Shown: positions 4,301-26,394, counted from the first letter of the stretch. The stretch: 26,753 nucleotides of DNA from a virus (IMGVR_UViG_3300032250_000458:1-26753), one strand, 5' to 3'. Program-made: numbers and translations. Notes: generated from the sequence alone by a model not told the origin.

Positions 4301-4479
4301 TGCGTTTTGGTTCGTATCTGATACCGTTTCCGCGGTTCGAATCGATCCTGAAGCATCCTAAGGCCGTTTTAGGGTCATTCGTGGGATTGTTAGCCGCGTG
4401 CAACGCGGTCCCAACATTGGTCCTACCTCGCCTATCGCTCAAATCCGACCCTCCCCCCCGTTTTTAGCGCAAAAATGGC
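4301..4479. other. Probable cos/packaging-initiation region
   Basis: Non-coding gap between HNH and terS, where cos lies in HNH-terS-terL phages; G7 tract on the minus strand and repeated CGTTTT(T)AG-like words; exact cut site not determinable. Confidence 0.55.
4453..4475 (+). repeat. 23-bp dyad motif C7-G-TTTTT-AGCGC-AAAAA, copy A
   Basis: Reverse complement matches 13838..13860 at 22/23 positions. Confidence 0.85.
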
Positions 4480-4833
4480 CTATTGCTTGTTCGCCTTGCG
4501 AGCGATCAGGTCGCGCATGGTCTTCCGGTCATGGCACTCGCCACACAAACCTTGCAGGTTCGCGCGCGCGTTATCCCCGCCATCGCGCAGGGGCAGGATG
4601 TGGTCAACCTCCACCGCAGGCACAGGCACGCCCCGCGCCAGGCAATGGCGGCACAGGGGTTCAGCGTTCAGGATCACCAGCCGCAGCTTGCGCCACGCCG
4701 CGCCATAGCCACGCTGGCTGGCCGTGCCGCGCTTCTCATCGTGGCGCTGCTGCGCGTTCACCCAGGTGCGCGGCGCGGCTGCCTTGCCCGCGTTGATCCG
4801 CAGGCGGGGTGGGAACCGGCGGGGCTCGGTCAC
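4480..4833 (-). CDS. HNH endonuclease, terminase-associated (HK97 gp74-like; 117 aa)
   Basis: RGYGAAWRKLR..CRHC..VDHILPLRDGG..NLQGLCGECHDRKT; GTG start overlaps the upstream stop. Confidence 0.92.
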   Translation of the reverse strand: MTEPRRFPPRLRINAGKAAAPRTWVNAQQRHDEKRGTASQRGYGAAWRKLRLVILNAEPLCRHCLARGVPVPAVEVDHILPLRDGGDNARANLQGLCGECHDRKTMRDLIARKANKQ

Positions 4834-5117
4834 GCGTCCACCTTGCGATACCTGGCGCGCCACAGGGCGCGGGCTATGGCGCTCGCCGTGGCCTCTACGG
4901 CCGCCTCATCCAGCTCCGGCCGTGCAGCGTGTAGGCACTCATGCACCAGCACATCTAGCGCCCTCTGGCCGCGCAGGGCGCGCCGGACTTGGATGAGCGG
5001 GTGGCGGCCCGCAGGTAGCCAGCAGCGGCCCCAATCGGTTCCCATCACGCGTGCGGGTTCAAAACGCACACGCCAAACACGCCCGGCAATGCGGGTGCGG
5101 AACTCATCGCCCTTCAC
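4830..5117 (-). CDS. Small HEXXH (zincin-like) protein, 95 aa
   Basis: DWGRC..VLVHECLHA..E motif; coupled start/stop on both sides. Confidence 0.7.
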   Translation of the reverse strand: MKGDEFRTRIAGRVWRVRFEPARVMGTDWGRCWLPAGRHPLIQVRRALRGQRALDVLVHECLHAARPELDEAAVEATASAIARALWRARYRKVDA

Positions 5118-5869
5118 GGCATCACCTCTAGCCGCGCTTCCCAGTTGCGACCACGGCGGCGGCTCATGGGCTCGCCCACATCGATCACGATGATGGCGCT
5201 ACCCCATTGCGATGTGTCGCGGCGGCTCATCCACCCAGGCTGAAGCGGGCCGCAGGTACCCGCGTTCGCGTACCAGTAGGGCAGCGGAATGGATCGGGTG
5301 CGCCTGCATTGCGTTGGCGCAACTGGGCGGTGGGTATGCCCGCGGATGAACAGCCGGTGCGGGGCTCCGCCGGTGGCGTTGAAGAATTGCAGCGCCTCTA
5401 GTTCGTCGGAGTTCTGCCCCACATCGAAACCATGGGTAGCCACGATGGGGCCAAGCTCAAGGCACCCGTTCCGATCCTTGCGGTATGGGGTCCAATGCCA
5501 CCGCTTCGCTTCGGTTGCGAACGGTTCCGCGTGCATGAAATCGGCTACAGCCCGCAACGCACGCGGGATGCGGCGGGGGTCTTGGCTCCGCAAATTGTCA
5601 TCGTGGTTGCCTTCTGTGATATGGCACCGTGCTTTGCGCGGCAACACCTCACGGATCGATTTCAGGAACGCGGCCGCGTGCCTGTACTCGTCTAGCAGCG
5701 AATGCCCGGCCTCGTCGGGGTGAACGCTCGCCGCGCTGGCTTCGAACACATCACCAAGGTGGATGAAGTGCGTAAGCCCCTTCATATCGGCAAGCGTTTT
5801 GAGTAGCCAATGGTGCGTAGCCATTGGGGTGTGCGGCGAATGCGTGCAGCTAATCGCCGCAACTTTCAA
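5114..5869 (-). CDS. Calcineurin-like metallophosphoesterase (251 aa, TTG start)
   Basis: SCTH (DxH variant), HLGDVFE, EGNHD, THG, GHTH motifs in canonical order. Confidence 0.85.
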   Translation of the reverse strand: MKVAAISCTHSPHTPMATHHWLLKTLADMKGLTHFIHLGDVFEASAASVHPDEAGHSLLDEYRHAAAFLKSIREVLPRKARCHITEGNHDDNLRSQDPRRIPRALRAVADFMHAEPFATEAKRWHWTPYRKDRNGCLELGPIVATHGFDVGQNSDELEALQFFNATGGAPHRLFIRGHTHRPVAPTQCRRTRSIPLPYWYANAGTCGPLQPGWMSRRDTSQWGSAIIVIDVGEPMSRRRGRNWEARLEVMP

Positions 5870-6237
5870 GGCTCCGGCTCCGCATTCATGGGCGGGCGCT
5901 CGGCGATCATGGCGAGCAATCGGCGCGCGAACTCCGGCGCATCGCTGGGGCGCAGCATTACCGCCCATTCGGTGTCCCCGTCCTGGCGCATCATCACAAA
6001 TGGCACGGTTCCGGGTGTTGCATCGCGCTCCGCTTGCTCAAGGAACTTCAACGCGCCAATCGCCGCGTACCGCTTCACTTCGCAATGCAGGCCCGGCAGG
6101 CCCAGCAAATCGGCATCACCGGCGGCCCCACAAAACTGCTGCGCTCGGCGCGCCTCGGTGGCGTTCCAATGCTGTTGCAGCACCGCCGCTGCTTCGCGCT
6201 CGCCTGCCTTGCCCTTTTGCCGTGAATGGCTGCCCAT
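5866..6237 (-). CDS. Holliday junction resolvase, Hjc-like PD-(D/E)XK (123 aa)
   Basis: SRQKGKAGERE..DADLL..HCEVKR motif. Confidence 0.78.
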   Translation of the reverse strand: MGSHSRQKGKAGEREAAAVLQQHWNATEARRAQQFCGAAGDADLLGLPGLHCEVKRYAAIGALKFLEQAERDATPGTVPFVMMRQDGDTEWAVMLRPSDAPEFARRLLAMIAERPPMNAEPEP

Positions 6238-6259
6238 GCGGTCATCCTCTCACAGTTTT

Positions 6260-6541
6260 TCACGCGGGATGGAAATACGCTTCGCCACCGTCATCCCGGT
6301 AGCGCATCCGGCCGCTGTACCACCACACGCCTTGCTTGTCCGGGATGTAGATCGCCTCGGTGTAGACATCGCGCCCGATGTTCGATGGAAGTTCCTCGCA
6401 GCACACGCCCATGACCACAGGCACGCGGATTTCTAAATCCGTGCCATCGACCTGCACGCGGTCACCGTCACATGGGCCCCAGCGCAGTTGCACTTCCTCC
6501 ATGCCCGGCATTATCCCGCTGCCGCATTCGTGGCTCGTCAT
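6260..6541 (-). CDS. Hypothetical protein (93 aa; start may be later)
   Basis: ATGA-coupled to the upstream gene; GPCDG motif like small conserved phage proteins. Confidence 0.6.
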   Translation of the reverse strand: MTSHECGSGIMPGMEEVQLRWGPCDGDRVQVDGTDLEIRVPVVMGVCCEELPSNIGRDVYTEAIYIPDKQGVWWYSGRMRYRDDGGEAYFHPA

Positions 6542-6882
6542 TTCATCACCTCGCGCAGCTTCGCGCGCAGGTGCATCGCGTGCGCCTTGCGGAATATCGC
6601 GGCAACCAAGCGCGCGAACTCTCGCACCTCGTCAGGGTCGGGTGGCCGCCGGTGCAGGCTGCGCGTGGCGGTTTGGATGTCATCGATGCCCAGCGCGATG
6701 GCCGCGGCCGATGGTTCGACCTGGCACACCCGCACGATCACGGCTAGCGCGGTGATGCGCTCGCGCTGGTGGCGGCGCAGGTGATCCCGGTAGGCGGCCA
6801 TGCTCGCATCGTTCCCGTACCCGAACTCAAGGGACGCAAGCGCCATCACCACCTGCCACGGTTGTGCGCTTGTGGTTCCCAT
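6538..6882 (-). CDS. Hypothetical protein, possible degenerate DnaA domain IV-like HTH (114 aa)
   Basis: AAGGGA RBS; ERITALAVIVRVCQVEPSAAAIALGIDDIQTATRSL loosely follows the DnaA C-terminal pattern; adjacent to the putative origin. Confidence 0.5.
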   Translation of the reverse strand: MGTTSAQPWQVVMALASLEFGYGNDASMAAYRDHLRRHQRERITALAVIVRVCQVEPSAAAIALGIDDIQTATRSLHRRPPDPDEVREFARLVAAIFRKAHAMHLRAKLREVMK

Positions 6883-6900
6883 TTATGCATATTCCCTTCG

Positions 6901-7045
6901 ATTCCGATAACTGATCCGATAGGGCTGGGTTGTTTTTTTCTTTTTTCTCTCTCCCTTTAGGGGAGAGAAAAAGGAAATAAAACAGCCCTGCCGCCCTAAT
7001 TTCGCCATTTGAAATTGGGCCGAAAACCTAATTAGTATCGGACTT
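6901..7045. other. Putative replication origin: AT-rich long imperfect palindrome with flanking repeats
   Basis: AGGGCTG(6921)..TCTCTCCC-TTTAG-GGGAGAGA..CAGCCCT(6989); second dyad 6993-7020; TCCGATA at 6903, 6915 and inverted at 7036; immediately downstream of the primase-helicase. Confidence 0.55.
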
Positions 7046-7067
7046 TCCCTCATCGTGTTACACGCTG

Positions 7068-9071
7068 TTACGCGTCTCCGTTTGAATTATTCACGGCGGC
7101 TGGGTGGGTTCTGCGCACCCACACCACACCCTTTGTGCTGCCCTGCTTCTCAATCAACCCGCTACCCAGCGCCAGCGTTCGCAGGCTCTCGGCGCGGCCC
7201 TTGGTGAGTTTCATGGCCTCGGCGGTTGCTCGCAGCTCCGCGCCGCTCATGGCCTCACGATCCAGCCACACCGTGGCACCGTTGGCCTGCTTCGTCTCAA
7301 CCCGGAAGCATTCCTCCACGAACCGTTGGGCGCTCCACCCGTCATCGTCTGCATCTTTCTTGCCTGGCTTGGCCAAATCCTTGGGGTCAAGGTGCGGGGC
7401 CATGTGAAACAGGGGATAGGCCCAGCGCAGCACGCGCGGTTCGATGGGGGCGAACGAACGCACCGCCGCGTCCAGCACCACATGCCCTTCCTCCCGGTGG
7501 TGGCGCAGAATCAAATGGCTATCAGCGGCGCGGCTCATCGATCCAGCGCCCGCGCCCACATCGGTCACACCCTTACCGGCTTGATCGCCCTTGCTGGTGT
7601 GGTGGATCATCACGAACGCGCAATCCAGCGTGCGCGCCCACCTATCCACTTGGTTGTAGATGCGCGCCATGCTCCCGTTATCGTTTTCATCCGTGCGCGC
7701 TGGCAGGAAGCGGTAGAACGCGTCGAGGATCACCACCGTGTACTGCCCGGCCGCGCAATGGTCGAACAGGCGCGCGCCCAGCCCGTCAAAATCCACTAGG
7801 TCACCGCGCAGGTTCAGGATGTCCAAGCGATCCGCTAGGGACTCAAACGGAATGCCCTGCGCCGCGCACAGCTTCGGGATGCGGTCCGCGCTTGTCTCCG
7901 GGTGCAATTCGTTATCCACGATCAGGACTCGGCCCGCCTTCGGGATTTGGAAACCCATCCACGGTTCGCCCCTGGCAACGCACAGCGCCATTTGGTTCAC
8001 CATGAAGCTCTTGCCCATCTTTGGGCTACTGATCAGGTTCAGGGTTTCGCCCGTTCGTAGAAGCCCTTCGATGACCGGCCGCCGCAACTCCGGGCACCTC
8101 GCCACGAGGGCGCAGATGGGCACAGGCTGCAACCGCGCCGCCGGGGCGGCTGGCGGGGGCTCCAAGGCCTGCACAGCCTCTGCGGGGCCGCTCACGGCCT
8201 TCCGCTCGGCGGCGAACGCGTTCGGTATCTGCCGCTGGTTCAGGTCGATCAGTTCATCGGCGGTGAGGCCCAGCGTGGCCGCCCTAGCCATGATCCTCGG
8301 CCCGGCCTCGGCGATGCTCCACCCGCGCGCCTTCATGTCACAGGCCACCGTAAAGACGGTGGTGCGCCTGCCCTGGCGCATGATGAAACCTTCCTCTAGG
8401 AACCGCCTAGAAAGGTCTGAAAGCGATCCGGCTGCCGGTGTGGCCAATGGTGGAATCAACACCGTCCCGCCCTCCTGCGGGGCAGGGAACTCGTCTAGCG
8501 TCCAAATGTGATCCGCTTCGCTCTCATGCACCACGCACAGCGGTTGCTCGGGGTACTTCCAGTTGTGGAAGCCAGGCACGCGCATTACCCGCGGCGCATC
8601 GGTCACGCTGGAATCGGAACCCAGTCGGTGGGCGAGCGCCTTTTGGTAGCGCGTCCACTCGGCTAGGTCGGTCATCGGCTCCGCCAAGCGCCACCACGAA
8701 TGGATGCCACCGCCCGTCTTCACCACCACCGTGGGTTCGGGGATGTTGGCTTCCCTCCACGCCATCCGGGCTTGCTCAACCGTGGTGCCGCCATCAAAAT
8801 CGGCGAACAGGCAGCGGGCCAACGCCACATCGGTGGCCTTACCGCCGCGCCCGCTTCGCGGGTTGGCCCCGAAATACACATGTTGGCCCTTCGCCACCGT
8901 CGCGGCAAGCTGCGCGATGACGCGCGATGCCTTCGCCTGGGGAACCCAATCGCGCAGCCCACCAGCGCCGCCGATGGTGCGAAACTCGATCAGGTCATTG
9001 GCTTCGAAGATCAGGCCCAGCAGTTGATAGGCGGACTCAATCGCCGCGGCTGCTGCATCGGTGGTGGTCAC
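7068..9071 (-). CDS. Primase-helicase fusion: RepB-type AEP primase, PriCT-like linker, AAA_25/RecA-like helicase (667 aa)
   Basis: LFADFD, KTGGGIHSWW, DAPRVMRVPG primase motifs; SSPKMGKS Walker A, VILDAF Walker B, IHHTSKG..GAGS helicase motifs; GTGA-coupled start. Confidence 0.9.
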   Translation of the reverse strand: MTTTDAAAAAIESAYQLLGLIFEANDLIEFRTIGGAGGLRDWVPQAKASRVIAQLAATVAKGQHVYFGANPRSGRGGKATDVALARCLFADFDGGTTVEQARMAWREANIPEPTVVVKTGGGIHSWWRLAEPMTDLAEWTRYQKALAHRLGSDSSVTDAPRVMRVPGFHNWKYPEQPLCVVHESEADHIWTLDEFPAPQEGGTVLIPPLATPAAGSLSDLSRRFLEEGFIMRQGRRTTVFTVACDMKARGWSIAEAGPRIMARAATLGLTADELIDLNQRQIPNAFAAERKAVSGPAEAVQALEPPPAAPAARLQPVPICALVARCPELRRPVIEGLLRTGETLNLISSPKMGKSFMVNQMALCVARGEPWMGFQIPKAGRVLIVDNELHPETSADRIPKLCAAQGIPFESLADRLDILNLRGDLVDFDGLGARLFDHCAAGQYTVVILDAFYRFLPARTDENDNGSMARIYNQVDRWARTLDCAFVMIHHTSKGDQAGKGVTDVGAGAGSMSRAADSHLILRHHREEGHVVLDAAVRSFAPIEPRVLRWAYPLFHMAPHLDPKDLAKPGKKDADDDGWSAQRFVEECFRVETKQANGATVWLDREAMSGAELRATAEAMKLTKGRAESLRTLALGSGLIEKQGSTKGVVWVRRTHPAAVNNSNGDA

Positions 9072-9421
9072 TTGGATTCCCCAAAGCAATCCCAACCCTT
9101 CGAAGCTGCAAACGCGTTGGGGTCCATGTACATGCGCGCAAGAGTTCGGCGCAGCGCGTCACGGTCTGCACGCAATTCCGCCATCTCTTGGCGAATCTGC
9201 GCGGCCTTCTGATCGTCGTTCCGATCCGTTTGCACGCGCTCTAGGTAATCGTTCCGTTTCCTGAAATCTTCGCACCGCTCGCGCAGGTAGTCCGCGCGCT
9301 CTTCCCATGTTTTCGCTTGCTCGCGTAGGGTGGCAATGGCTGCGATGGCGCGGGCAATCAGCCCGTGCGGCTTGGTGCATACACGCTGCAAATCGCGCAA
9401 CAGCGCGTCATACGGTTCCAT
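9068..9421 (-). CDS. Hypothetical coiled-coil protein (117 aa)
   Basis: Fills the operon with overlaps on both sides; charged heptad-like sequence. Confidence 0.65.
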   Translation of the reverse strand: MEPYDALLRDLQRVCTKPHGLIARAIAAIATLREQAKTWEERADYLRERCEDFRKRNDYLERVQTDRNDDQKAAQIRQEMAELRADRDALRRTLARMYMDPNAFAASKGWDCFGESK

Positions 9422-9920
9422 TCGATTCCCTTTGCATGGTGTGCATCGGGTTCAACGCGTCACGCGGTACCCAATGCTCGGGCTGGTTGTAATAGGTTTG
9501 CAGGAACTCATCTTGCCGCGCCTCGTGGCCCCACATCCACCCGGCAAGCCTCACCTGGCCGTAGCTCTTGGTGAGGCTTGTGATGGCCAGCACATAGCGC
9601 CTATCTCCGTGATCGCGTGGACGCACCACCAATTGCCCGTTCATCCAGCCGGTGGAACGCACCTCAATGTCCGGCTCAACATCCACCGCGCCCTTCACAT
9701 ACTGCACAGATGGTTCATAGCCGCGCACGCCAAACCACTTGGCTACCGCTAGTTCCCCAGCAGCGCCGCCGAACTCGTGTTGCTCTCGCTCGGTGAAAAT
9801 CCGATCCATGATGCACGCGTGGTTCAGCCCGTTCGCTGCACCAAACGCCATGCGCGCCTCGGCCACGCGCTCGCATAGTTCGATTTCCGCGTCGGTAAGT
9901 TCCACCGTAACCATCGGCAT
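9408..9920 (-). CDS. Hypothetical protein, possible restriction-endonuclease-like fold (170 aa)
   Basis: GAAGELAVAK..VDV..IEVRS resembles an E..D..ExK catalytic pattern with K>R. Confidence 0.55.
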   Translation of the reverse strand: MPMVTVELTDAEIELCERVAEARMAFGAANGLNHACIMDRIFTEREQHEFGGAAGELAVAKWFGVRGYEPSVQYVKGAVDVEPDIEVRSTGWMNGQLVVRPRDHGDRRYVLAITSLTKSYGQVRLAGWMWGHEARQDEFLQTYYNQPEHWVPRDALNPMHTMQRESNGTV

Positions 9921-9968
9921 CCTTGCCGCGGATCGAATCCGCTACAGGTGTTGAGAAGTAACCCCATA

Positions 9969-9999
9969 GCCGGGGCGGCGAGAACTCAACCGCCCCGGC
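9969..9999 (-). promoter_or_regulatory. GC-rich RNA hairpin downstream of the DUF669 gene
   Basis: GCCGGGGCGG-N11-CCGCCCCGGC perfect 10-bp stem; no U-tract, so not called a terminator. Confidence 0.5.
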
Positions 10000-10014
10000 C
10001 TTTCCGGGGGTTCG

Positions 10015-10491
10015 TTAGAAGGGAATCCCATCCGCGCCGGGCTGCACCGCCTTGCGCCCAGGCTTCGCGGCCGTGGCCGTGCTGCGCTGCTGGGTGGGGC
10101 GGATGAAATCGCCCGCCTTGGCCTTTCCATTCTGCGAGTGCCACACGCGCAACAGGATTTCGCGCCCCTCAAGGTTCGCTTCCTCAAACCGCTGGGTGGC
10201 CTTGTCGATGTGCGGAAGAGCGCACGCGTCCAACAGTTCGTTCAGTCGCAGGATGCGCGTGACCGCGACATCTTCGAACACGCGGTAACGCTGGCCGCCG
10301 GTTTCGATGTCGAACCACAGGGAAACCACCAGCCCGCGTGGGTTGTCGGTGGTCTTCATGTTTTCGAATGGGCTTTCGCGGCCTTCCGCCTTGCTGATCG
10401 TGGCGGTGTAGGTGCCCTCGGGGCAGGGGCCGCCTGCGCCGCTCGACTTGCGTGCCTTGTCCTCGCTGCTTCCGTGAATTAGATCGATCAT
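10015..10491 (-). CDS. DUF669-like single-stranded DNA-binding protein (158 aa)
   Basis: PCPEGTYTATISKAE N-terminal motif and SSB-type C-terminus ADGIPF; follows the annealase gene. Confidence 0.75.
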   Translation of the reverse strand: MIDLIHGSSEDKARKSSGAGGPCPEGTYTATISKAEGRESPFENMKTTDNPRGLVVSLWFDIETGGQRYRVFEDVAVTRILRLNELLDACALPHIDKATQRFEEANLEGREILLRVWHSQNGKAKAGDFIRPTQQRSTATAAKPGRKAVQPGADGIPF

Positions 10492-11291
10492 TCCGAACCT
10501 TTCTCCAGGCGCTCGGCCTGCTGTTGAAGTGCCTTCAAAATCAACCCATCCACCTCGGATGGGTCAGTTCCCGCGTCAACGGTCTTTCTTGCCGCGGTCA
10601 CCGCCTGCTTTGCGCTCCATCGGATGCCAACCGATTTGGCTTTCTCGGCGATGGATTCGGCGAGCTGCTGGATGCGATCCGGCGCGCTCGGCGGCGGTGG
10701 CTGCTCCACCACCACCGCCGGTGCGCTGGGGAGCGATACCGTCGTTCGCTCCGCGGATTGGCTCACACGGGCATTCAGCGCCGCCAGCGCGCTATCTGCC
10801 TCCACCACGGTGGTGGCTTCGGCTAGTTCCTCATCGCCCTCGGTGGCACCGCTGAACCCGAAAGCGGCCTTCAGGCAATGCGCCTCTGCGCGGGTGCGGA
10901 GCATGTGCAGCGGCTGGGTGCGCCAGTTGGGGCTTGATCCCTTGAACTCCGAAAGCCAACAGGTGAACTCAAACTCCCCGCCTTCCGTGGTGGTCACCTT
11001 GAAGGTGCAGGAATCAACACTTCCGCTTGCATCTCTGTGATAAATACACACGCCGGAGTGGTAGCGACCCGATTCACGGGCCAGCCTGCGCCATCCGTCG
11101 ATGGAGACATACAGGCACAGGCGGCCGCCGAACGCCAGCGGGTACACCTCGCGCCGGAGCGGATCAAGCCCGTAGGTCTTCATCATCGCGGCCAGCGCCA
11201 TTCGATCCACCTGGCTTGCGTTGCGGGGCATGACCTGTTCGATGACGCGTTCGATGTGCGCCGCGTTGGGAACGGTTGCTAGGTCACTCAT
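10488..11291 (-). CDS. recT: RecT/Bet-family ssDNA annealing recombinase (267 aa)
   Basis: YGLDPLRREVY..VSIDGWRRLA..WRTQPLHMLRTRAEAHCLKAAFG. Confidence 0.88.
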   Translation of the reverse strand: MSDLATVPNAAHIERVIEQVMPRNASQVDRMALAAMMKTYGLDPLRREVYPLAFGGRLCLYVSIDGWRRLARESGRYHSGVCIYHRDASGSVDSCTFKVTTTEGGEFEFTCWLSEFKGSSPNWRTQPLHMLRTRAEAHCLKAAFGFSGATEGDEELAEATTVVEADSALAALNARVSQSAERTTVSLPSAPAVVVEQPPPPSAPDRIQQLAESIAEKAKSVGIRWSAKQAVTAARKTVDAGTDPSEVDGLILKALQQQAERLEKGSE

Positions 11292-12130
11292 CGTGCAAGC
11301 CCTTCCTCAAGTTGGCGGCGCGCCCAATTCGCAAGTCCGATGCGTTCGATGCGATCCGGGTAGCCGGGCCATGTCTCGGTTTCGTGGCACACCTTGTAAT
11401 CCGCGATCAGCCGCCGCATGTCCGCTTCGAAGTAGTCCATGTCGGAATCGTCCATGGCGTAAACAGCCACGCCGTGAGGCGCGGTGTTCTCCACGCACAG
11501 GAACGCGAAGCCACTCACATTGAGCCCGGCGATGCGCGCCACGCGTCGATAAAACGCGGCCTGCAACCCGTAGCCAAGGTTCCAAAGCGCAGACTTGAAC
11601 CCGGGGTATGACGCGTCGCGGCAGGTCTTCAGGTCGATCACCCAGCCGGTGGCGGGGTCATACCCATCCAGCCGCGCCTTCAACTGCGTTCCTGTGTGCG
11701 GGTCTTCCGCAAACACGGAAAGTTCACGCTGGGTAGCCATCTCCAGCATGGCGCGGCAAGAGTTCGACGCGTGAACCGCGGCAACCATGCCCGCCACCGC
11801 CTCGCCCTGGCTGGCATCAAGGATCAACTTGTGCCCGTTCAGGACTTCGAACGCGCGGAACTCAGCCTTGCCTGCGGTGGTGCGCTTGTCGCACTTCGGC
11901 GCTACCGCCACTTCCGCCGTGTACATGTCCGGGGTGAGAATCGCCGTATGCACAGCGGTGCCCATGTTCATCGCGTCATTGCTCTCGCCATTCTCCATTT
12001 GGTAGCGAGCGTGCAGCGGTGACTTGGCAAGCATCGCCTTCATAAAGGTGGAGGACAGGGCGGGCACCGCGTGGTAGTCCGCGGCGGGGATGTGTTCACG
12101 AACGCCAAGGGCGAAGGTGTTAGCGGCCAC
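11288..12130 (-). CDS. RecE/Exo VIII-like PD-(D/E)XK exonuclease (DUF3799-like; 280 aa)
   Basis: DYHA..LSST..GTAVHTAIL..ELSVF..KARLD..IDLKT..YGLQAAFY; GTG start behind GAGGAGG; paired with recT. Confidence 0.88.
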   Translation of the reverse strand: MAANTFALGVREHIPAADYHAVPALSSTFMKAMLAKSPLHARYQMENGESNDAMNMGTAVHTAILTPDMYTAEVAVAPKCDKRTTAGKAEFRAFEVLNGHKLILDASQGEAVAGMVAAVHASNSCRAMLEMATQRELSVFAEDPHTGTQLKARLDGYDPATGWVIDLKTCRDASYPGFKSALWNLGYGLQAAFYRRVARIAGLNVSGFAFLCVENTAPHGVAVYAMDDSDMDYFEADMRRLIADYKVCHETETWPGYPDRIERIGLANWARRQLEEGLAR

Positions 12131-12269
12131 AGCGCACCTCCTCGGCAATTGCCAACAAATCACGCTCGCGCTTGATCGCCTCGCGCAGCTTCGCAAGCGC
12201 CTTCTGCTCGTGGTACCAAACGGTCTTGGGATCGCAGCCCAGCACCTTTGCAACTTCAACAAGAGTCAT
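12120..12269 (-). CDS. Stand-alone sigma70 region 4-like HTH mini-protein (49 aa)
   Basis: Below the ORF-track cut-off; hand translation MTLVEVAKVLGCDPKTVWYHEQKALAKLREAIKRERDLLAIAEEVRCGR; GGAGG RBS and ATGA coupling; fits the TLxEIAxxLG...ExxALxKLR pattern. Confidence 0.75.
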   Translation of the reverse strand: MTLVEVAKVLGCDPKTVWYHEQKALAKLREAIKRERDLLAIAEEVRCGR

Positions 12270-12625
12270 CGGCCACCTCCCGCCAGCGAACGAATGACGC
12301 GAACTCCGCGCGTGAGAAGCGGTACCTCGGGTGCGGGCTCAACCTCATCTTCGGAAATGTCTCGGCGGTAATCACCCTGGCCCAGCGACAAGAGCGGCGC
12401 GCAATCCTTCCGGCGCTCCTGCTGCATCACGCTGTGCGCGGCCGCAAGGATGGCCACCGGGTGGATAGGGGTGGGGAACCCGTCAAGTTCCTTCGTGAGC
12501 GCGTACAGCTTGTGCATGGACACAAGGCGCACCCACTCCGCATCCTGCGAACATCCCCCAGCGTTCAGGCTTTGAATTGCTAGCCCGATGTCCTCAACGA
12601 TCTTCCCGTAGCGATTGCGATCCAT
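12266..12625 (-). CDS. Hypothetical protein, first early gene after attP (119 aa)
   Basis: AGGAG RBS; overlaps the int 3' end; coupled to the HTH mini-gene. Confidence 0.7.
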   Translation of the reverse strand: MDRNRYGKIVEDIGLAIQSLNAGGCSQDAEWVRLVSMHKLYALTKELDGFPTPIHPVAILAAAHSVMQQERRKDCAPLLSLGQGDYRRDISEDEVEPAPEVPLLTRGVRVIRSLAGGGR

Positions 12626-13889
12626 GCGATGGCTCCTGCTGCGTTAGCAGCATTTGCGCCTCGTGCATCAGCACCAATGCTTCCTTTAGGAAAGCGTGGT
12701 CTGTTAGCAATGAGGCTGCGGCTAAAAGCCGCCCCGCACGGGTGGGTAGGCTCACAGTTTCGAATCCTGTAGCGCCTACTGCAACTGTGTTGATGGAGCG
12801 ACCGCGAACACATCGAAGACTAGCGCGCGTGGTGGATTCAACGGCCGTAGGCGCGATGCGCGCGCTAGTCGCCGAAGTGTTCGCAGGGATAGTTGCACCG
12901 TTGGCCATTGCTGAATCCGTGCGTAACCTATCGACCGCACTAGTTTTCATGGGACAGTTTTTAGATATTTTTCCGCCGCGGCTCTCGGCAGCCTCGCGTA
13001 GCCGGGGTTCCCGGTGCCGGATGTAACGGTGCGTCTGCGATATATCCCGGTGGCGCACAAGGCGTTGAATCAGTTCCGGCGGGGTGCCGTTCTCAAAGGA
13101 TTCGGTGATGTAGCCGCAGCGGAACGAATGGAATCCGTACCTGCCGGACATCCCCGCGCCCTTCAAATCCGTGGCCAGCCCCTTGTAGGACACGGTGCGG
13201 GCAAACACCTTGGGCCCGGTCTTGGCCTTTCGCATCTCGCGCAGCAGTTCAACCGCCGCATGGGAAAGCGGAATGTGATCCCGGCGGCGCGATTTGTCCA
13301 GGCTCACCACCATTGTCCCGGCCTCTAGGTCAATGTCGCTCCACAACTGCGCGTGGGCTTCGCCTCGCCGGATGCCCGTAAGGGACAGCAGCCGGTACAG
13401 GTTGGCGCGGTTCTTGGCGCTGGCTCGGATGGCGGGGGATGCGCCCTCGGTGATCTGCTCGGTGGCGTGGTCGATTAGCCGCTGCACCTCGGCATCGCTG
13501 AACGCGTCGCGGCCTTGCCCAGCCCGGCCGCGCGGCCCTGGCACATGCGCCCACGGGTTGGATTCAATTAGCCCTTGGATCAGCATCCAGCCCGCAAAGC
13601 GGCGGCAGGCGCTCATGCGGTTCCGGATAGTTTGCGGTGCAAGGGTGCCGCCGCGGGTCATATCCCGCAGCCATTCAATGCAGGAAGCGGGGGAAATCTC
13701 GGCCGCGTGCGCCTTCACATGCTCGAGCCAATCCCGCACCCAGCGCGCAGCCTGGCGCACATGGTATTCGGCTTGCCCGTCAAGCTCGCGGGTAGCCACG
13801 ATCCACGCATCTACCTGCGCAAGTAGGTCTACCCCTGTTTTTACGCTAAAAACGGGGGGGGGGGGTATGCACGAGGTGTCTCCACACAT
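12594..13889 (-). CDS. int: Tyrosine integrase with no arm-binding domain and a ~130-aa C-terminal extension (431 aa)
   Basis: APQTIRNRMSACRRF..SNPW core-binding domain; catalytic TGIRRGE, DKSRR, HSFRCG, VRHRDISQTHRY. Confidence 0.93.
   Translation of the reverse strand: MCGDTSCIPPPPVFSVKTGVDLLAQVDAWIVATRELDGQAEYHVRQAARWVRDWLEHVKAHAAEISPASCIEWLRDMTRGGTLAPQTIRNRMSACRRFAGWMLIQGLIESNPWAHVPGPRGRAGQGRDAFSDAEVQRLIDHATEQITEGASPAIRASAKNRANLYRLLSLTGIRRGEAHAQLWSDIDLEAGTMVVSLDKSRRRDHIPLSHAAVELLREMRKAKTGPKVFARTVSYKGLATDLKGAGMSGRYGFHSFRCGYITESFENGTPPELIQRLVRHRDISQTHRYIRHREPRLREAAESRGGKISKNCPMKTSAVDRLRTDSAMANGATIPANTSATSARIAPTAVESTTRASLRCVRGRSINTVAVGATGFETVSLPTRAGRLLAAASLLTDHAFLKEALVLMHEAQMLLTQQEPSHGSQSLREDR
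12754..12779 (+). mobile_element. attP core: 3' end of a host tRNA (T-loop, T-stem, acceptor strand), probably tRNA-Val
   Basis: ACAGT-TTCGAAT-CCTGT-AGCGCCT-A-C; tRNA-like from the T-loop onward, with one mismatch 5' of the loop and no D or anticodon arm. Confidence 0.8.
13838..13865 (+). repeat. 23-bp dyad motif copy B plus G12 homopolymer in the 5' end of int
   Basis: TTTTT-ACGCT-AAAAA-C-G12 (G at 13854-13865); inverted copy of 4453..4475. Confidence 0.85.
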
Positions 13890-13901
13890 GGCTCCGAGGC
13901 C

Positions 13902-13910
13902 ACGGTATCA
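13902..13910 (-). promoter_or_regulatory. Possible extended -10 promoter for int
   Basis: TG-A-TACCGT about 12 nt upstream of the int ATG; no properly spaced -35. Confidence 0.3.
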
Positions 13911-14062
13911 CCCAAATCAATTTCAAAAGTCACCCGGACTTTCATTCCGTCGAAACCTAGTGCGTTCCGTAACTAGTTTGGGTTATTTGGCAAGTTATGC
14001 ACACCATCATGCATTTGGGGAGTTCAGAAAGGAACCGCACACACATCCCCAGTTCTAGTTAG

Positions 14063-14091
14063 TTGTATCGACCCGTCAAAATCACTATCGT
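14063..14091 (+). promoter_or_regulatory. Sigma70-type promoter for the single plus-strand gene
   Basis: TTGTAT-N17-TATCGT followed by GGAGG (14104-14108) and ATG 14116. Confidence 0.55.
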
Positions 14092-14115
14092 GCGCGCTCA
14101 TCCGGAGGATTCAGC

Positions 14116-14382
14116 ATGGCAACAGTTCAGGAAGATGGCGGGTTGAGCGAAGCGGAGCGGCGCAAGATTTGGGCGGAGGAACGCGAACGCACGCGCGCCA
14201 ACCTTGCCGCCCGCGGCGAAGCAATCGAAGCAATGGAACAGGCTGAACGCTCCGCGTCTTACGCGCGCACGCGAACGATGCTGAAGTGGACTGCGATTGC
14301 CATCGGCTTGCTGGTAACTGGGATGTTGCTGTGGAATGCATACGAACGCTTCGTGCTTCCCCAGCCACGGCACTTCCGCTAG
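14116..14382 (+). CDS. Single-pass membrane protein (88 aa), possible superinfection-exclusion/lysogen-expressed gene
   Basis: Own promoter and GGAGG RBS; charged helical N-terminus, TM segment WTAIAIGLLVTGMLLW; only plus-strand gene, convergent with the late operon. Confidence 0.75.
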   Translation: MATVQEDGGLSEAERRKIWAEERERTRANLAARGEAIEAMEQAERSASYARTRTMLKWTAIAIGLLVTGMLLWNAYERFVLPQPRHFR

Positions 14383-14897
14383 CCCAGCAGCCGCTTGGCT
14401 GTATCCACCACGCTGCTGGCCACGCCGGTGATGGCCTCGGCCACGGTGCCCAGGCTTGCGCCCGTGCCCTCTACGGGCTGCCACTTGCCCAGCGGGCAGG
14501 TTGCCCCGGCTAGGGTCAGTTTCACCGATAGCGCCGCGCGGCGGTTGGAACCGCACCCGCACTTGGTACACCAGCCGATGCCGCCGGGATCGGTAGCGCC
14601 CTCCACCACCTCGGCGCGGCCTTCGCACGCTCGGCAAATAGCCGCGCGCTCACCCTGCACTTGGACGCTGGCGGGGCCTTGGGTGGCGTGCCTGCGCTCC
14701 GCAGCTAGATATGCCGCGGCGCGCGATGCGAAACCGTAGTTGATCGTTTCACCGATGCCCATCGGCCGCTCGCCCTTGACCACGCGGTGCGGGCATTGGC
14801 CGCACACACCGATGCTGGGGCGGCCTCCGTAGTGGCCCGCGGCGCAGCATCCGCCGCCCAACACCTTGCATTCGCTCCAATGGTCGCAGTCGATCAC
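14379..14897 (-). CDS. Cys-rich protein with a DUF6171-like CxxC..CxxCGC..K..CPxxKW module (172 aa, 12 Cys)
   Basis: ERAAICRACE..WCTKCGC..KLTLAGATCPLGKW plus an N-terminal Cys/His cluster; GTGA-coupled. Confidence 0.75.
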   Translation of the reverse strand: MIDCDHWSECKVLGGGCCAAGHYGGRPSIGVCGQCPHRVVKGERPMGIGETINYGFASRAAAYLAAERRHATQGPASVQVQGERAAICRACEGRAEVVEGATDPGGIGWCTKCGCGSNRRAALSVKLTLAGATCPLGKWQPVEGTGASLGTVAEAITGVASSVVDTAKRLLG

Positions 14898-15586
14898 GAT
14901 ACGGAAAACTCCGTCACATACGGGCTAGACCCGCCAGCCTCTAGCGTCCATGATGCTTCGCGCGGATCACATGCTCCAGCTATGGTTGGTTTTTCCCATT
15001 GAGCGTAAAATCCGCCTGGAACTGCACATGTGGCATAGGTGCGATAGTCACACGGGTCGCAAACGATTCCTTCCTGTGTGCAATCTTCGGAAGAACAAAC
15101 GGTGCTTGAGGCAATCTCGATATTGCCCCTGAAACTGCATCTTGAGGATGTTTCAACGGTTGGATGTAGCACAACCGTCGCGTACAAAGAAAAGTCGTAG
15201 TCAACTGTGCAACACGGGCCAGCACCGTAGTTTTGGCACACAGAGTAGGAACTTGCTCCGGAGTAGAACTCTACTGCGTTTGCTATGAAAACTGCGCCAT
15301 CTGTTCGGTATGCAGTTTCGCAAGGGCAAACATTTGCTACCACAGACCCGGATATGGGGTAAAGACCTGTGCTTGTTTCTACACCTTGTGAACAGTTCCC
15401 GGGATTGAGTGGATCAGGGCCGCATGTGTAGGTGCTGCCTCCCGGCCCTGGTGTGATCAATCCACCAAAACACGATGGTGCGCCGCTGATTGTGAACGAA
15501 ACCAGCACGGCTGTTGGCGCGGTAATTGCAACGCAATGAGCGCATGTACACCCACCGCAGCAACAACCCGCCATCATCATCGACAC
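14894..15586 (-). CDS. Cys-rich protein (230 aa, 21 Cys, N-terminal GCCCGGCTCAHC), possible receptor-binding/tail-tip protein
   Basis: Ser/Thr/Gly/Cys-rich beta-type composition; visibly lower GC than flanks; function inferred only. Confidence 0.65.
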   Translation of the reverse strand: MSMMMAGCCCGGCTCAHCVAITAPTAVLVSFTISGAPSCFGGLITPGPGGSTYTCGPDPLNPGNCSQGVETSTGLYPISGSVVANVCPCETAYRTDGAVFIANAVEFYSGASSYSVCQNYGAGPCCTVDYDFSLYATVVLHPTVETSSRCSFRGNIEIASSTVCSSEDCTQEGIVCDPCDYRTYATCAVPGGFYAQWEKPTIAGACDPREASWTLEAGGSSPYVTEFSVS

Positions 15587-15589
15587 GGT

Positions 15590-15727
15590 TTAGCCCTTCG
15601 CGCCGCGAATCCATCCCGCGATGGTGCCCAGCGGAACGATGTGCCCCGCGATGTAGCCGATGGCAAGGCAAGCGAAGGCGGCCCAGGTCGAACCGATCAG
15701 GGATTCAGCGGTGGCAAGGTGGTACAT
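15590..15727 (-). CDS. Small hydrophobic membrane protein (45 aa), holin-like
   Basis: MYHLATAESLIGSTWAAFACLAIGYIAGHIVPLGTIAGWIRGAKG; GAGGA RBS. Confidence 0.6.
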   Translation of the reverse strand: MYHLATAESLIGSTWAAFACLAIGYIAGHIVPLGTIAGWIRGAKG

Positions 15728-16242
15728 GGCTTGGGTTCCTCGGTGCGCTTCCAAGCGGCTTCCCACACGGGATCGCTTGCGCGCTTTGCTGCAATGTATT
15801 CCCGGATCGTCGCGGGGTTGGAAGTTTCCATTACATCGCGGGCCAATGCTGCATCTCGCAGGCTCGGCCGCGGAATCCAACCCAGCGCCACGCGTATGGC
15901 TGCGCCTATTCCCGTCTGCCACAGGATGGCCGCCACGGCCACGAGGGCGGCCGCTGCTGCGATGTAACCAAGTAGCACCGCCCACCATGGAGTCTGATCC
16001 TCCACGCCCGGTAGCGCCTTGTGGATGGCTCCTGCGGCCGCTTCGATGTGCTGGGCTTCAACCACGATGGCGGCCGCATCGGCCACCACCTCGGTTTGGG
16101 TAGACACGCTCCCAATGTGCGTTGCCAGCCTGGCGATGGTTCCGGCACGCTCACCAGCCTCGGTAGCCGAAACCGCAATGGCCCGGCTAGGGCTGCACGC
16201 GGCGCAGGCGATCAGCAGCAGGAAGACCAAACAGCGGATCAC
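15697..16242 (-). CDS. Lipoprotein with internal TM helix, unimolecular-spanin-like (181 aa)
   Basis: MIRCLVFLLLIACAAC lipobox; Ala-rich helical segment; TM WWAVLLGYIAAAAALVAVAAILW. Confidence 0.6.
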   Translation of the reverse strand: MIRCLVFLLLIACAACSPSRAIAVSATEAGERAGTIARLATHIGSVSTQTEVVADAAAIVVEAQHIEAAAGAIHKALPGVEDQTPWWAVLLGYIAAAAALVAVAAILWQTGIGAAIRVALGWIPRPSLRDAALARDVMETSNPATIREYIAAKRASDPVWEAAWKRTEEPKPCTTLPPLNP

Positions 16243-23986: not shown

Positions 23987-25276
23987 TCAGGTGCTGGCGT
24001 TGAAAGCCTTGAACGCCAGGGCGGGGAGCGAGAGCTGGCAATCCATACGCATGTTTGCGATGTAGCCCGTCTCATTCGTGTCCGCGTAACGCTCGCGCAG
24101 CACCTTCAATTCATAGTTGCCCGTGGTGCCGAAGTAGCAGTAGTCCCACGCGCCGATGATGCCGATCTTGGTAGCGGTGGTGCCGCTCGTCGGAAGCGAC
24201 GAAATGGCCGCGCTGGTGTACACCGGGATGCCCATGATGCGATCCGGCTCCGGAGCCTGGCCGCTGCCGCCCTTGGTGTAGCCGTTCTCCCAGAAGTAGT
24301 TGGTGACATTGGTGGAACCAGTAACGCCGCCCAGCTTGCGGAGGTATCCCAAGGTGGAATCGTTCACGATGATCGCGCAGCTAGGGTGCTGGCGGTACTG
24401 GCGGGGCAGGCTGTAAATCCAGTCGATCACCTTCTCCGCCGTGAACGCCGTGTAAGAGCCGGTATTGGTGCTGGTGAGGGAAGCATCATTCAGCAGCGAA
24501 ACCGGCGCGCCGGAAACATTGGAAGCGGCCAGCAGCGCAGTCTCTTCCGTCTGACTGAAAACACGCGCCATCTGCTCGGTGACGATGGAAGAAATCGACA
24601 TGTTGCCGCCGCGGGCATCGGCATCGGCCACCAGTTCGTTCGACACGCGCAGAAGGGCCGAAAGGCGCTTCGGGGTGAGCGTGATCTTGGAGAAGGTGGG
24701 CGCAGCCTCGGTGGGGGCGGTGGACTCACCAACCCAGTACGCGGCACCCGTGGCGTTTTCGAAAGCCACTTCGCGCGCGAACGAACCCAGCGAGAGCTTG
24801 CGCGCCAGGTTGCGAACGCTCGTCATCGTCTGCAACTTGGCCACGAGCTGGTTGTCGAACTCGGTGGGCGGGATCACGGTGCCACCGCTGGCCTCGGTCA
24901 GCGCGCGAAGCTCCGCGGGTGCGGTGTGCTCGCCGTTGCGGAGGTAGTTGTGGAACGCGTCGCGGTACTCATCGGTCTCGCGGCGCTCGCCAACCTTCGC
25001 GGCGCGCTCGGCGCGCTGGGCGCTGCGAACCTCGGGTGCGGCGGGGATGTCGCTGAACACGGCCTGCTGGCCATTGTCCATCGCCATCACTTCCTCGTTG
25101 CGCTCACGCTGCTTACGCAGGTTGGCGTACTGGGTCTTGAGGGCGGTGTACTTCGCCTCCATCTCGGGGGCCATTTCGCCGCCGTTGGTGTTTGCACCAT
25201 CGACCATCGACATCATTTCCTGATAGAGCGCACCCATCTTCTCAATGAGGGCCTTGTATGAACTGGGGACTGGCAT
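23987..25276 (-). CDS. HK97-fold major capsid protein with N-terminal delta (scaffold) domain (429 aa)
   Basis: AGGAAGGAAG RBS before MPVPSS; ~100-aa coiled-coil leader; GGTVIPP, YWVGE, FSKITLTPKRL..RVSNELVAD, IMGIPVY, RMDC. Confidence 0.93.
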   Translation of the reverse strand: MPVPSSYKALIEKMGALYQEMMSMVDGANTNGGEMAPEMEAKYTALKTQYANLRKQRERNEEVMAMDNGQQAVFSDIPAAPEVRSAQRAERAAKVGERRETDEYRDAFHNYLRNGEHTAPAELRALTEASGGTVIPPTEFDNQLVAKLQTMTSVRNLARKLSLGSFAREVAFENATGAAYWVGESTAPTEAAPTFSKITLTPKRLSALLRVSNELVADADARGGNMSISSIVTEQMARVFSQTEETALLAASNVSGAPVSLLNDASLTSTNTGSYTAFTAEKVIDWIYSLPRQYRQHPSCAIIVNDSTLGYLRKLGGVTGSTNVTNYFWENGYTKGGSGQAPEPDRIMGIPVYTSAAISSLPTSGTTATKIGIIGAWDYCYFGTTGNYELKVLRERYADTNETGYIANMRMDCQLSLPALAFKAFNAST

Positions 25277-25377
25277 CGTTTCTTCCTTCCTAGATTCCCG
25301 CCGCGTGTCGCTCGGGCCAACGCGGCCCGCAGGGACATTCGCGGCGGTGTGCGAATGCCCAAAGATTGAAACGCGCA

Positions 25378-26394
25378 CTAGGCGCGGTTGACATTCAGAA
25401 CAGCAAACTTGTTGGTGATCGATCCATCGCAACGGATCGAAGCCACGAAAATGGTTTCATTCGTATCGGCTGCCGTTTCGCTGTACCGCGCGACGCTGAA
25501 CGCGCCGAACGAATGGGCCAGCAGGTACTGGGCAGGGTTGAAGAAATGCACCAGCGTGTCACCGGCGGCCGGGGTGGTGGCGCTCAAGCGGTGGTAGACG
25601 GTTGGCAAGCCCTCAACCGTGGTGCCGTTGACCATTGTTCCGCGGAAGCTGGGGAACAGCACCGGGAAGAAACTCGGATCGAAAGATGCCACAAGGCGGC
25701 TGTTGATCACGGCCACGCTGTTGATCCACGATTCATACGGAAGCGGGGACAGGGCGCTATTCGTCGAACCCCACACCGCCGAAATCACATCCTTCATGGT
25801 GTTGGTGGTGGCCACGCCGGTTGATGCTGTGCGGCTGTAACCCTTGGCGCTGTTGAAGCTGCCTTGGCACTCGCTGGTGCCGTTGCCGATCAGAATTTGG
25901 CGGCCCACCTCAAAGATCAGCCCATCGACCAGCGCGCGGCGCAGGAACTCTTCCACATCCTGCGCGCCCTTCGAATCGTTCAGCAGTTCGTTGGACACCT
26001 TCACCCACGCGGTTACCTTCTTCTGCGCGAAGGTGTAGTAGGTACCGCTGGTGCCAGCGGTGGTGCCCTGCACGGGCTTGGCAAAGGTGGGGGAAGACTG
26101 GGTACCCAATGCGGACTCGGCCACATTGGTGTTCACCGTCAAATCCTCTGCGTAGATTGGCAGATTGAAAGCGGTGGGGGTTTCGATCTTCTGAACGCGC
26201 GACAGGATTGCGTCTTCTGCGATCTCCGTATCGATGTACTTCGACCAGGCGGTCGGGGCCAGCGCGGTGCCGCCGCTGCTGATCGTCAGCGCGCGCGCCT
26301 CCACATCGGTGAGCCCGCGCGCGCCGCGGCGCAGGAAGGTGCGGTAGATGTCGCTGTACTGTTCGGAATCGCGCGTGATCTTGGCTTCGCCCAT
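25378..26394 (-). CDS. Second HK97-fold capsid protein paralogue lacking the delta domain (338 aa)
   Basis: RALTISSGGTALAP, VAES, KKVTAWVKVSNELLNDS, ILIGNGT, VEGLPTVY, ADTNET..RCDG; collinear with the 429-aa capsid. Confidence 0.88.
   Translation of the reverse strand: MGEAKITRDSEQYSDIYRTFLRRGARGLTDVEARALTISSGGTALAPTAWSKYIDTEIAEDAILSRVQKIETPTAFNLPIYAEDLTVNTNVAESALGTQSSPTFAKPVQGTTAGTSGTYYTFAQKKVTAWVKVSNELLNDSKGAQDVEEFLRRALVDGLIFEVGRQILIGNGTSECQGSFNSAKGYSRTASTGVATTNTMKDVISAVWGSTNSALSPLPYESWINSVAVINSRLVASFDPSFFPVLFPSFRGTMVNGTTVEGLPTVYHRLSATTPAAGDTLVHFFNPAQYLLAHSFGAFSVARYSETAADTNETIFVASIRCDGSITNKFAVLNVNRA

Follow-up and report, generated by a model that had tools for sequence, protein, structure and literature searches.

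According to the accessible parts of the papers cited here, several elements place an attachment site within or beside a gene whose state it sets. In Mx8, the tyrosine integrase gene crosses attP, and integration gives it a new 3' end while the catalytic part stays whole (PMC6070905, PMC4383910). In Tn916, the Porf7 promoter and the activity operon flank att, expression occurs only in the circle, and canT and T1 are named among the elements involved (PMC11658703). The IsrK-orf45-anrP system of Gifsy-1 and seqA/CI/seqC of P4 have leaders that can take either of two folds, and the end of the leader ORF overlaps the gene that follows (PMC4825925). In BPs, Brujita and Charlie, it is the repressor gene that contains attP, and the repressor is stabilised by integration (PMC3694055), while in SSV-type elements att lies inside int, a tRNA is the target, the gene is interrupted by integration, and the integrase has a non-canonical R..KxxR..Y tetrad (PMC5861418).

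The int gene of the phage analysed here, like that of Mx8, crosses attP after the catalytic domain. We propose that the 3' third of this gene may combine attP, a promoter, a two-state leader and a leader gene, and that integration would both trim Int and unplug the lytic genes, a reading to which we give roughly even weight. The DNA analysed (26,753 nt, called the window throughout) is a complete circular phage with a 123-nt terminal repeat and 26,630 nt of unique sequence. Pfam and PHROG searches recognised HK97-like head genes, RecE/RecT, a primase-helicase, RusA and HNH, and every recognised gene lies on the minus strand, bar one gene for a small predicted membrane protein (14116-14382). 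This sole plus-strand gene is variable or missing in relatives and is a possible superinfection-exclusion moron. Two neighbouring capsid-family ORFs (23987-25432 and 25378-26394) stand in different frames, a PHROG 'tail protein' follows them ahead of the connectors, and no long tape-measure gene was recognised.

The source runs are freshwater or unlabelled metagenomes, with long phage pieces in four of those examined, and the host is probably a member of the Planctomycetota. A Planctomycetes label was carried by two relatives (P0111 and P0260); the other taxon labels belong to four relatives, all on short contigs. Three MAGs holding phage-form contigs were labelled Rhodobacteraceae, Clavibacter and Pseudomonadota, and these short contigs are read here as putatively mis-binned; PF07596 had zero matches in the three MAGs and zero in the controls too. 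The neighbours of some tRNA-Val loci with a matching end are what we take to be Phycisphaerales-like.

The integrase frame and its attachment site

The positions of all features are collected in Table 1.

Table 1. Features of the phage discussed in the text, numbered from the first nucleotide of the window.
Feature	Position	Strand	Basis or remark
attP identity block: tRNA-Val T-loop, 3' strands of T-stem and acceptor, discriminator, next bases	12759..12782	+	
int (tyrosine integrase; core-binding and catalytic domains)	12594..13945	-	profile searches, alignment, structure model
Run of 12 C, frame break in this assembly	13854-13865		5' part of int
-10-like hexamer of predicted leaderless int promoter	13954..13959	-	putative; 8 nt ahead of int start
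Catalytic codons R174, K199, H254, R257, H280, Y289	13023..13370	-	invariant in 37 sequences
Predicted internal -10 (TAGGTT), predicted transcription start 12918	12925..12930	-	conserved motif
Internal in-frame ORF from M328, 104 aa, spanning attP	12594..12908	-	M328 invariant in 37 proteins
Stem P1, arms 12918-12895 and 12854-12834	12834..12918	-	begins at predicted +1, encloses M328 codon
Stem P2, arms 12884-12859 and 12829-12804	12804..12884	-	interleaved with P1; z -4.7
Post-att tail, helices 381-397 and 401-416	12642..12749	-	model; predicted to be lost from Int on integration
First downstream gene, 119 aa	12266..12625	-	start overlapped 32 nt by tail ORF
49-aa HTH gene	12120..12269	-	weak sigma region 4 / MerR-like matches, all below cut-off
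Rest of early block: RecE, RecT, primase-helicase, RusA, phosphoesterase, HNH	4480..12130	-	domain searches

The uninterrupted int ORF (12594-13889, minus strand) encodes 431 aa, and the true start is probably the ATG at 13945, which is out of frame with the remainder across the C run. In clade A and B loci this run is 12-33 nt long; among the nine loci showing both the run and the conserved int start, the two were out of frame in seven and in frame in two, and the run in the window was spanned by no contig of metagenomic run X1. Either Int is phase-variable or the assembly erred at this homopolymer. A 27-nt inverted copy (93%) connects 4449-4475, in the gap between HNH and terS, with 13838-13864 at the int 5' end, C run included. 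The HNH-terS gap is presumably the expected place for cos, and the int stretch holding the copy is missing from clade C proteins. Ahead of the int start, TAnnnT was seen by eye at a distance of 7-10 nt in most of the relatives listed.

The Pfam domain Phage_integrase (PF00589; E 1.5e-16) covers aa 134-293 and ends well ahead of att, in agreement with the statement of the earlier note that the site leaves the catalytic domain whole and that 54 aa (T378-R431) lie beyond it. Catalytic roles were given to the six residues of Table 1 according to what we take to be the tyrosine-recombinase consensus, and a fold search with Int returned significant E-values for tyrosine recombinases alone, with Brujita Int among three PDB hits. 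In the structure model the core-binding helices begin at residue 22 (relatives have just ~20-40 extra residues N-terminally), the catalytic domain ends at ~293-307, and the linker (308-378) is unstructured with a pLDDT under 50. The note had remarked that neither an arm-binding domain nor Xis was evident; the former is indeed missing from the model, whereas a small HTH gene two genes downstream weakens the latter part. Among the 36 homologues aligned (49-92% identity), the C-terminal extension was kept in all.

Within this extension, the residues VGATGFE (V371-E377) are the antisense of 12759-12779, just as had been read from the sequence; these positions are the tRNA-Val 3' end proper, which lies antisense in int, 88 codons past the catalytic Tyr. 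The single mispair described between ACAGT (12754-12758) and CCTGT was also found. That the tRNA match begins at the T-loop holds for the strict block from 12759 on, but a looser likeness continues 5' over 12748-12758. The crossover had further been confined to the 7-nt T-loop; in relatives, however, the kept identity begins at tRNA position 55/56 and not at 54, and therefore the crossover is not assignable to that loop. An ARAGORN call of tRNA-Ile in L007 was taken as spurious, since it overlaps attP.

If the extension were chance read-through, homologous int genes would be expected to stop ahead of attP. The frame was open through att in 48 of 49 loci, a count that includes the window and some near-identical loci; a total of 53 loci reach the catalytic region, and four of them (L041, L056, L058 and L059) end before att. 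The one broken locus, L010, has a short deletion near 1040-1064, just ahead of att, and a frameshifted tail; this deletion also damages the end of stem P2. The alternative frames contained 2-9 stops in 47 of 47 loci and the int frame none, and a 100-codon stretch over the site was open in 2.7% of 5000 shuffles. The att lies 247-322 nt downstream of the catalytic Tyr codon, in all three phases: 0 in clade A, 2 in clade B and 1 in clades C, D and E, with the tail in frame throughout. The att type depends on the clade: the 12 loci of clade A and the 11 of clade B carry Val-like sites, the 13 of clade C and the 12 of clade E carry Pro-like sites, and the single clade D locus has a fifth, unassigned type. 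In L053-L065 and L079-L081, a GC-rich hairpin stands right after the Pro-type att on the tRNA strand, followed in several by T-rich sequence, as if a terminator were supplied for the restored tRNA; a terminator scan on L057 did not call it.

The tail beyond att forms a helical hairpin in the model (pLDDT 80-85 for residues 381-410 and 71 for 411-420). Its dN/dS is 0.31 in clade A, 0.16 in clade B and 0.08 in clade E, and 1.06 in clade C, where tails are mixed; the tail is under purifying selection in clades A, B and E. No start codon of its own was found among the clade B rows listed, and the tail is probably read through att. A homodimer prediction for the tail scored 0.02, and the hairpin may be a part of Int, belong to a small protein starting at M328 (as a directionality factor), or serve mainly as a coupling device. 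Selection on the tail, five att types at one place, purged stops and the truncated relative P0111 (see below) all speak against a decayed relic, that is, a tRNA-like piece with chance read-through and no integration here. Such a relic would fit the lack of any prophage seen in clades A-C and the out-of-frame int at the C run in the window, and we regard it as most improbable.

A predicted promoter and internal start, and two interleaved stems

In the linker between the catalytic domain and attP, dN/dS was 0.84-1.10 in clades A-C (core 0.08-0.21) and 0.32 in clade E, and linker dS in A-C was 2-4 times below that of the core. Since dN/dS is near neutral and dS is low, the linker is constrained mainly as nucleic acid, with the frame open. 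At the predicted internal -10, all 40 loci of clades A-C have TAG(G/A)(T/G)T, which lies 6 nt ahead of the first base of P1 and 16 nt ahead of the ATG of M328. At the same place, the clade D/E linker carries TTGACA, 17 nt, TCTnnT, 6 nt and an in-frame GTG in all 13 loci, and with either promoter type the predicted +1 is where P1 begins. A sigma-70 scan made no call at the promoter-like site of A-C, where a TTGACA -35 is missing, and a sigma-28-type promoter was rejected by eye against the consensus, its -35 spacing being a misfit. One 11-nt motif lies on both predicted promoters in opposite orientations (12937-12947, minus; 13953-13963, plus). It is possibly a common operator or Int site and is not above chance genome-wide; the pattern AAAMCYMGTGC was rejected as proof of an operator because it was picked post hoc and three chance matches are expected.

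The two stems were examined in 33 distinct clade A-C sequences, in which 92.2% of cells were paired compared to 82.7% after shuffling (0/500); a slid control gave 30-39%, a comparison that is inflated because the structures were drawn from the same sequences. Double changes occurred at 23 of 44 pairs, in both stems. Nine clade D/E sequences that are not alignable to A-C had the same architecture (95.6% versus 89.8%), with covariation in P2 only and P1 invariant. With connecting strands of 10 and 5 nt, P1 and P2 would be unable to form fully together. Minimum free energy folding of the window sequence placed P1 over the start codon up to a length of 95 nt and P2 from 105 nt, P2 being predicted as the more stable final fold, and this switch from P1 to P2 was predicted in seven of the eight relatives folded; L065 keeps P1 and has no clear P2. 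These linker features (promoter-like site, internal start and two-state stems), which the earlier note does not mention, may chiefly account for the frame being kept open.

In clades A-C the wobble cells comprise 50 G-U and 59 A-C, which does not pick a strand, and in D/E they comprise 29 G-U and 13 A-C, which favours the int-sense strand. The inverted repeats could instead act as DNA, as a hairpin, a cruciform or symmetric sites for attP proteins, with no internal promoter and with a frame that is open merely so that int ribosomes reach the next gene. The repeats stand 20-160 bp from the att core, a region where accessory sites are usual, and A-C wobble pairs free of strand bias and the lack of an Rfam match would suit such sites. 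However, long-range compensatory changes in two interleaved stems, the sense-strand G-U excess of D/E and the canonical promoter spacing are not what DNA sites would call for, and we hold this account to be improbable.

A covariance search of 12300-14400 against Rfam (cmscan, E up to 5) gave one chance match (C0465, E 4.7) and none to the IsrK or C4 families, which also bears on the idea that the leader works as an immunity RNA of the P4/IsrK type. A short or processed leader would then act in trans on the nascent leader to set the lysis-lysogeny choice or to block superinfection, with integration secondary, an idea that is compatible with our preferred explanation. The 5' arm of P2 is looped when P1 is folded and is complementary to the 3' arm of another transcript, and a lysogen would keep promoter and leader at attL; IsrK-orf45-anrP, too, has two folds and a leader ORF conserved by nucleotides and not by residues, as given in the accessible part of its description (PMC4825925). 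Against this stand the absence of a terminator after P1, the missing Rfam match, and the three-part seqA/CI/seqC complementarity, which was not seen by eye here, and as the principal role of the leader we think RNA immunity unlikely. The stems would in any case make a compact, covariation-backed RNA element lacking an Rfam entry, and one that can be tested with a reporter in a standard host.

The tRNA target and the integrated form

The earlier note had named tRNA-Val as the target type, and this agrees with the ARAGORN results: of the 35 metagenome sequences that match the T-arm pattern, 29 were identified as tRNA-Val (TAC 21, CAC 7, GAC 1), and the other 6 received no call. A tRNA that ends in the exact acceptor strand of the phage, as the note would have it, was not found among these 35 matches; all carry the clade B acceptor strand, with C where the phage has T at 12777, a position where wobble pairing could serve. 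The best host-like contig, with a tRNA-Val(TAC) from runs X2 and X3, differs at 4 of 35 letters over 12748-12782, the one difference listed being at 12758. In five metagenome contigs (L084, L104, L107, L108 and L110), tRNA-Val 3' fragments occur with no 5' half and are probably the att ends of unrelated elements.

When 13 distinct whole Val tRNAs were read antisense in the clade A frame, 12 (TAC 7, CAC 5) gave a stop six codons past GFE, where the note had placed it, and the GAC one gave a stop eight codons past; in the clade B frame, all 13 give a stop after one codon. In tRNA-Pro, the antisense T-loop itself reads TGA, owing to T at position 55. This T55 was present in 23 of 23 tRNA-Pro-type matches, which came from 22 of 401 Actinomycetota genomes (not host genomes) and were tRNA-Pro in all ten cases fetched, and in none of 25 phage loci of clades C and E, which have G or A in all 25; the next residue at the Pro-type junction is C or W in 43 of 43 proteins. 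Since T55 makes an in-frame TGA and is missing from clade C/E phages, the stop has been purged at the junction. The predicted integrated C-terminus would gain six residues in clade A (ending in non-polar LAV), one in clade B and none in the Pro clades; a conserved ssrA-like tag created by integration was rejected, as the ends vary by clade.

We searched for the integrated form in several ways. Neither the 50 viral loci nor the 3 genome loci contained a prophage, be it of this phage or from clades A-C, no int relative stood beside the tRNA in the 35 metagenome tRNA matches, and three more viral pattern scans returned phage attP alone, or nothing. In run X2, a 43-nt contig of depth 4 has the same start as the tRNA contig and runs into the phage arm to 12788, which gives a hint of an attL-like junction, in a contig that is short and falls outside the bridging rule. 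Among the close relatives read, the only short form is P0111, a protein of 370 aa that matches the profile at E 6e-109 and comes from a Planctomycetota MAG contig of 821,817 nt. It ends in RGNRI-stop, and this end, known from the protein alone, is the exact place where antisense tRNA-Pro gives a stop. A query with P0111 found one viral locus, on the contig of L066, in the phage form.

More distant relatives were surveyed with 148 representatives, of which 73 had a mapped catalytic Tyr and 75 were dropped. An extension of 70 aa or more was present in 48 of the 73, and half of these (24) had a T-arm antisense motif 60-135 aa past the Tyr, compared to 2 in control windows; the 24 comprise 14 long tails and 10 short ends. 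The ten distant short forms, together with P0111, suggest an integrated form with another C-terminus, as judged from sequence, and the tail of Int is very probably swapped upon integration. If so, the integrated state would account for the unusual tails, antisense to tRNA, that many integrases of this family carry in databases. Many of P0113-P0258 carry the peptides MEPGGIEP, WSRGESNP or GAGGNRTP past the extension; the three are one RNA 3' end read in three frames, an end that we take to be tmRNA-like.

The swap could be all there is, as in Mx8, with the long, tailed Int integrating and a trimmed Int, possibly unstable through its LAV end, excising poorly; the motifs and stems would then serve int expression or the intasome, and a conventional, unrecognised repressor would silence the lytic genes. 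The tail is folded in the model and selected, the model has no arm-binding domain, and T-arm motifs in 24 of 48 distant relatives point to a family-wide swap for which the phage operon may not be needed; Mx8 itself offers the precedent, as far as the accessible text goes (PMC6070905). Left unexplained are the perfect TTGACA promoter with its in-frame GTG at +1 in 13/13 D/E loci, and the invariant M328 with a P1 that begins at +1, while the variation of the new C-terminus by clade makes a conserved degradation tag unlikely. We consider it doubtful that the swap is the whole story, and the suggestion of the earlier note that the two forms of Int set directionality gained no support from the analyses made here. 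By itself it is known from Mx8 and only moderately interesting.

The early operon, the proposed switch and known systems

The tail frame leads into the early genes. The first of these, the 119-aa gene, had no Atlas match, and the 49-aa HTH gene is a candidate for Xis, Cro or an activator. Between the tail and HNH, with small ORFs of our own choosing, successive ORFs are never more than 21 nt apart, which leaves no intergenic room for a promoter downstream; promoters within genes are possible. A simple scan of the minus strand over 9000-16000 found no terminator-like site. No cI-type protein was found by Pfam on 70 ORFs, or by PHROG on 50 of those, the ORFs being drawn from 212 with a length of at least 50 aa and from a few shorter ones, and none was seen by eye upstream of int in 21 loci, in several of which int comes right after the final structural gene and a divergent gene is absent altogether. 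In these domain searches the weak 49-aa protein was the only HTH of the early region, and the ORF from M328 had no HTH match. A repressor could be among the roughly ten small early genes that belong to no family.

In the switch that we propose, the layout, the open frame, the selection on the tail, the covariation and one truncated chromosomal relative are taken from observation. In the circular phage, the internal promoter would start a leader RNA at the predicted +1, 12918; the RNA would first fold P1 and hide the M328 start, and about 105 nt in would refold to P2 and free it. Ribosomes would then read 104 codons from M328 through attP into the helical tail, whose frame overlaps the first early gene, and so would feed a chain of coupled genes, while Int, made from its own upstream promoter, would end in the same tail. 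Promoter activity, the M328 start, the order of folding, the coupling and the silencing by integration are the predicted components of the model. Recombination with the 3' end of a host tRNA-Val would carry int to attL together with the promoter and leader, all pointing into the rear of the tRNA; there the frame would run on for six codons before a stop (for one codon in clade B and for none in the Pro clades). The tail and all lytic genes would be left at attR, promoterless. The integrated Int would keep its catalytic domain and lose the hairpin, and excision would restore the connection between promoter and operon.

We go further only tentatively. These 27-kb freshwater phages might practise lysogeny free of any repressor, in which one event trims Int and unplugs the only early promoter, and in which the leader is a folding timer, P1 giving way to P2 so that lytic translation is delayed and Int has time to act; in the lysogen, the leader may add RNA-based immunity. 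Jointly with this repressor-free reading, and at the same low confidence, the switch might have moved among tRNA targets in all three frames with the frame staying open. If true, this would be about the simplest possible lysis-lysogeny switch, with one gene holding the recombinase, the attachment site, the lytic promoter and an RNA leader, and with the state of the DNA, circle or prophage, as the switch itself. It would also bear on how lambda-like circuits may have grown from integration-dependent ones, a subject taken up in PMC3694055, of which part was accessible.

Our literature search found nothing on this phage family or on this combination of features; its coverage mostly excluded subscription journals. 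As for kinship with Mx8, no record named Myxococcus occurred among the tblastn matches listed, 15 of a total of 54 that includes two records named only 'Bacteriophage', and the best phage Int matches among those listed were integrases of Mycobacterium and Arthrobacter phages at 27-30% identity. The following comparisons rely on the accessible parts of the sources named. Mx8 has a separate immunity gene, imm (PMC6070905), and no internal promoter, two-state leader or disconnection of an operon is described in those parts for it (PMC6070905, PMC4383910). The likeness to Tn916, drawn from sequence, is that the predicted promoter and the operon would stand on opposite sides of att with an RNA element between them. 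Tn916, however, is an ICE in which a terminator insulates the operon and an antiterminator RNA overcomes it (PMC11658703), whereas this is a tailed phage in which no terminator was found, the promoter and att lie inside int, and the link is apparently translational. With the IsrK and P4 leaders, the element would share two leader folds over an overlapping leader ORF, as judged from covariation and folding prediction; no link of those leaders to int or attP is described in the portion of the source available (PMC4825925).

The BPs-type systems resemble the proposed switch in that recombination would make both regulatory states, attP lies in a coding frame, and Int has no arm-binding domain. They differ in that here it is the int frame that contains attP, and in that neither a repressor nor a divergent cro/rep pair was found. 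As to C-terminal proteolysis tags, a trait of the BPs type, the predicted integrated end is non-polar in clade A and different in B, C and E. SSV-type elements likewise have att inside int and target a tRNA gene, but the tetrad here is the canonical HxxR one and att follows the catalytic Tyr. The element is thus not a member of the BPs, SSV or Rfam families; by analogy, it would work like Mx8 and Tn916 combined, with an IsrK-like leader.
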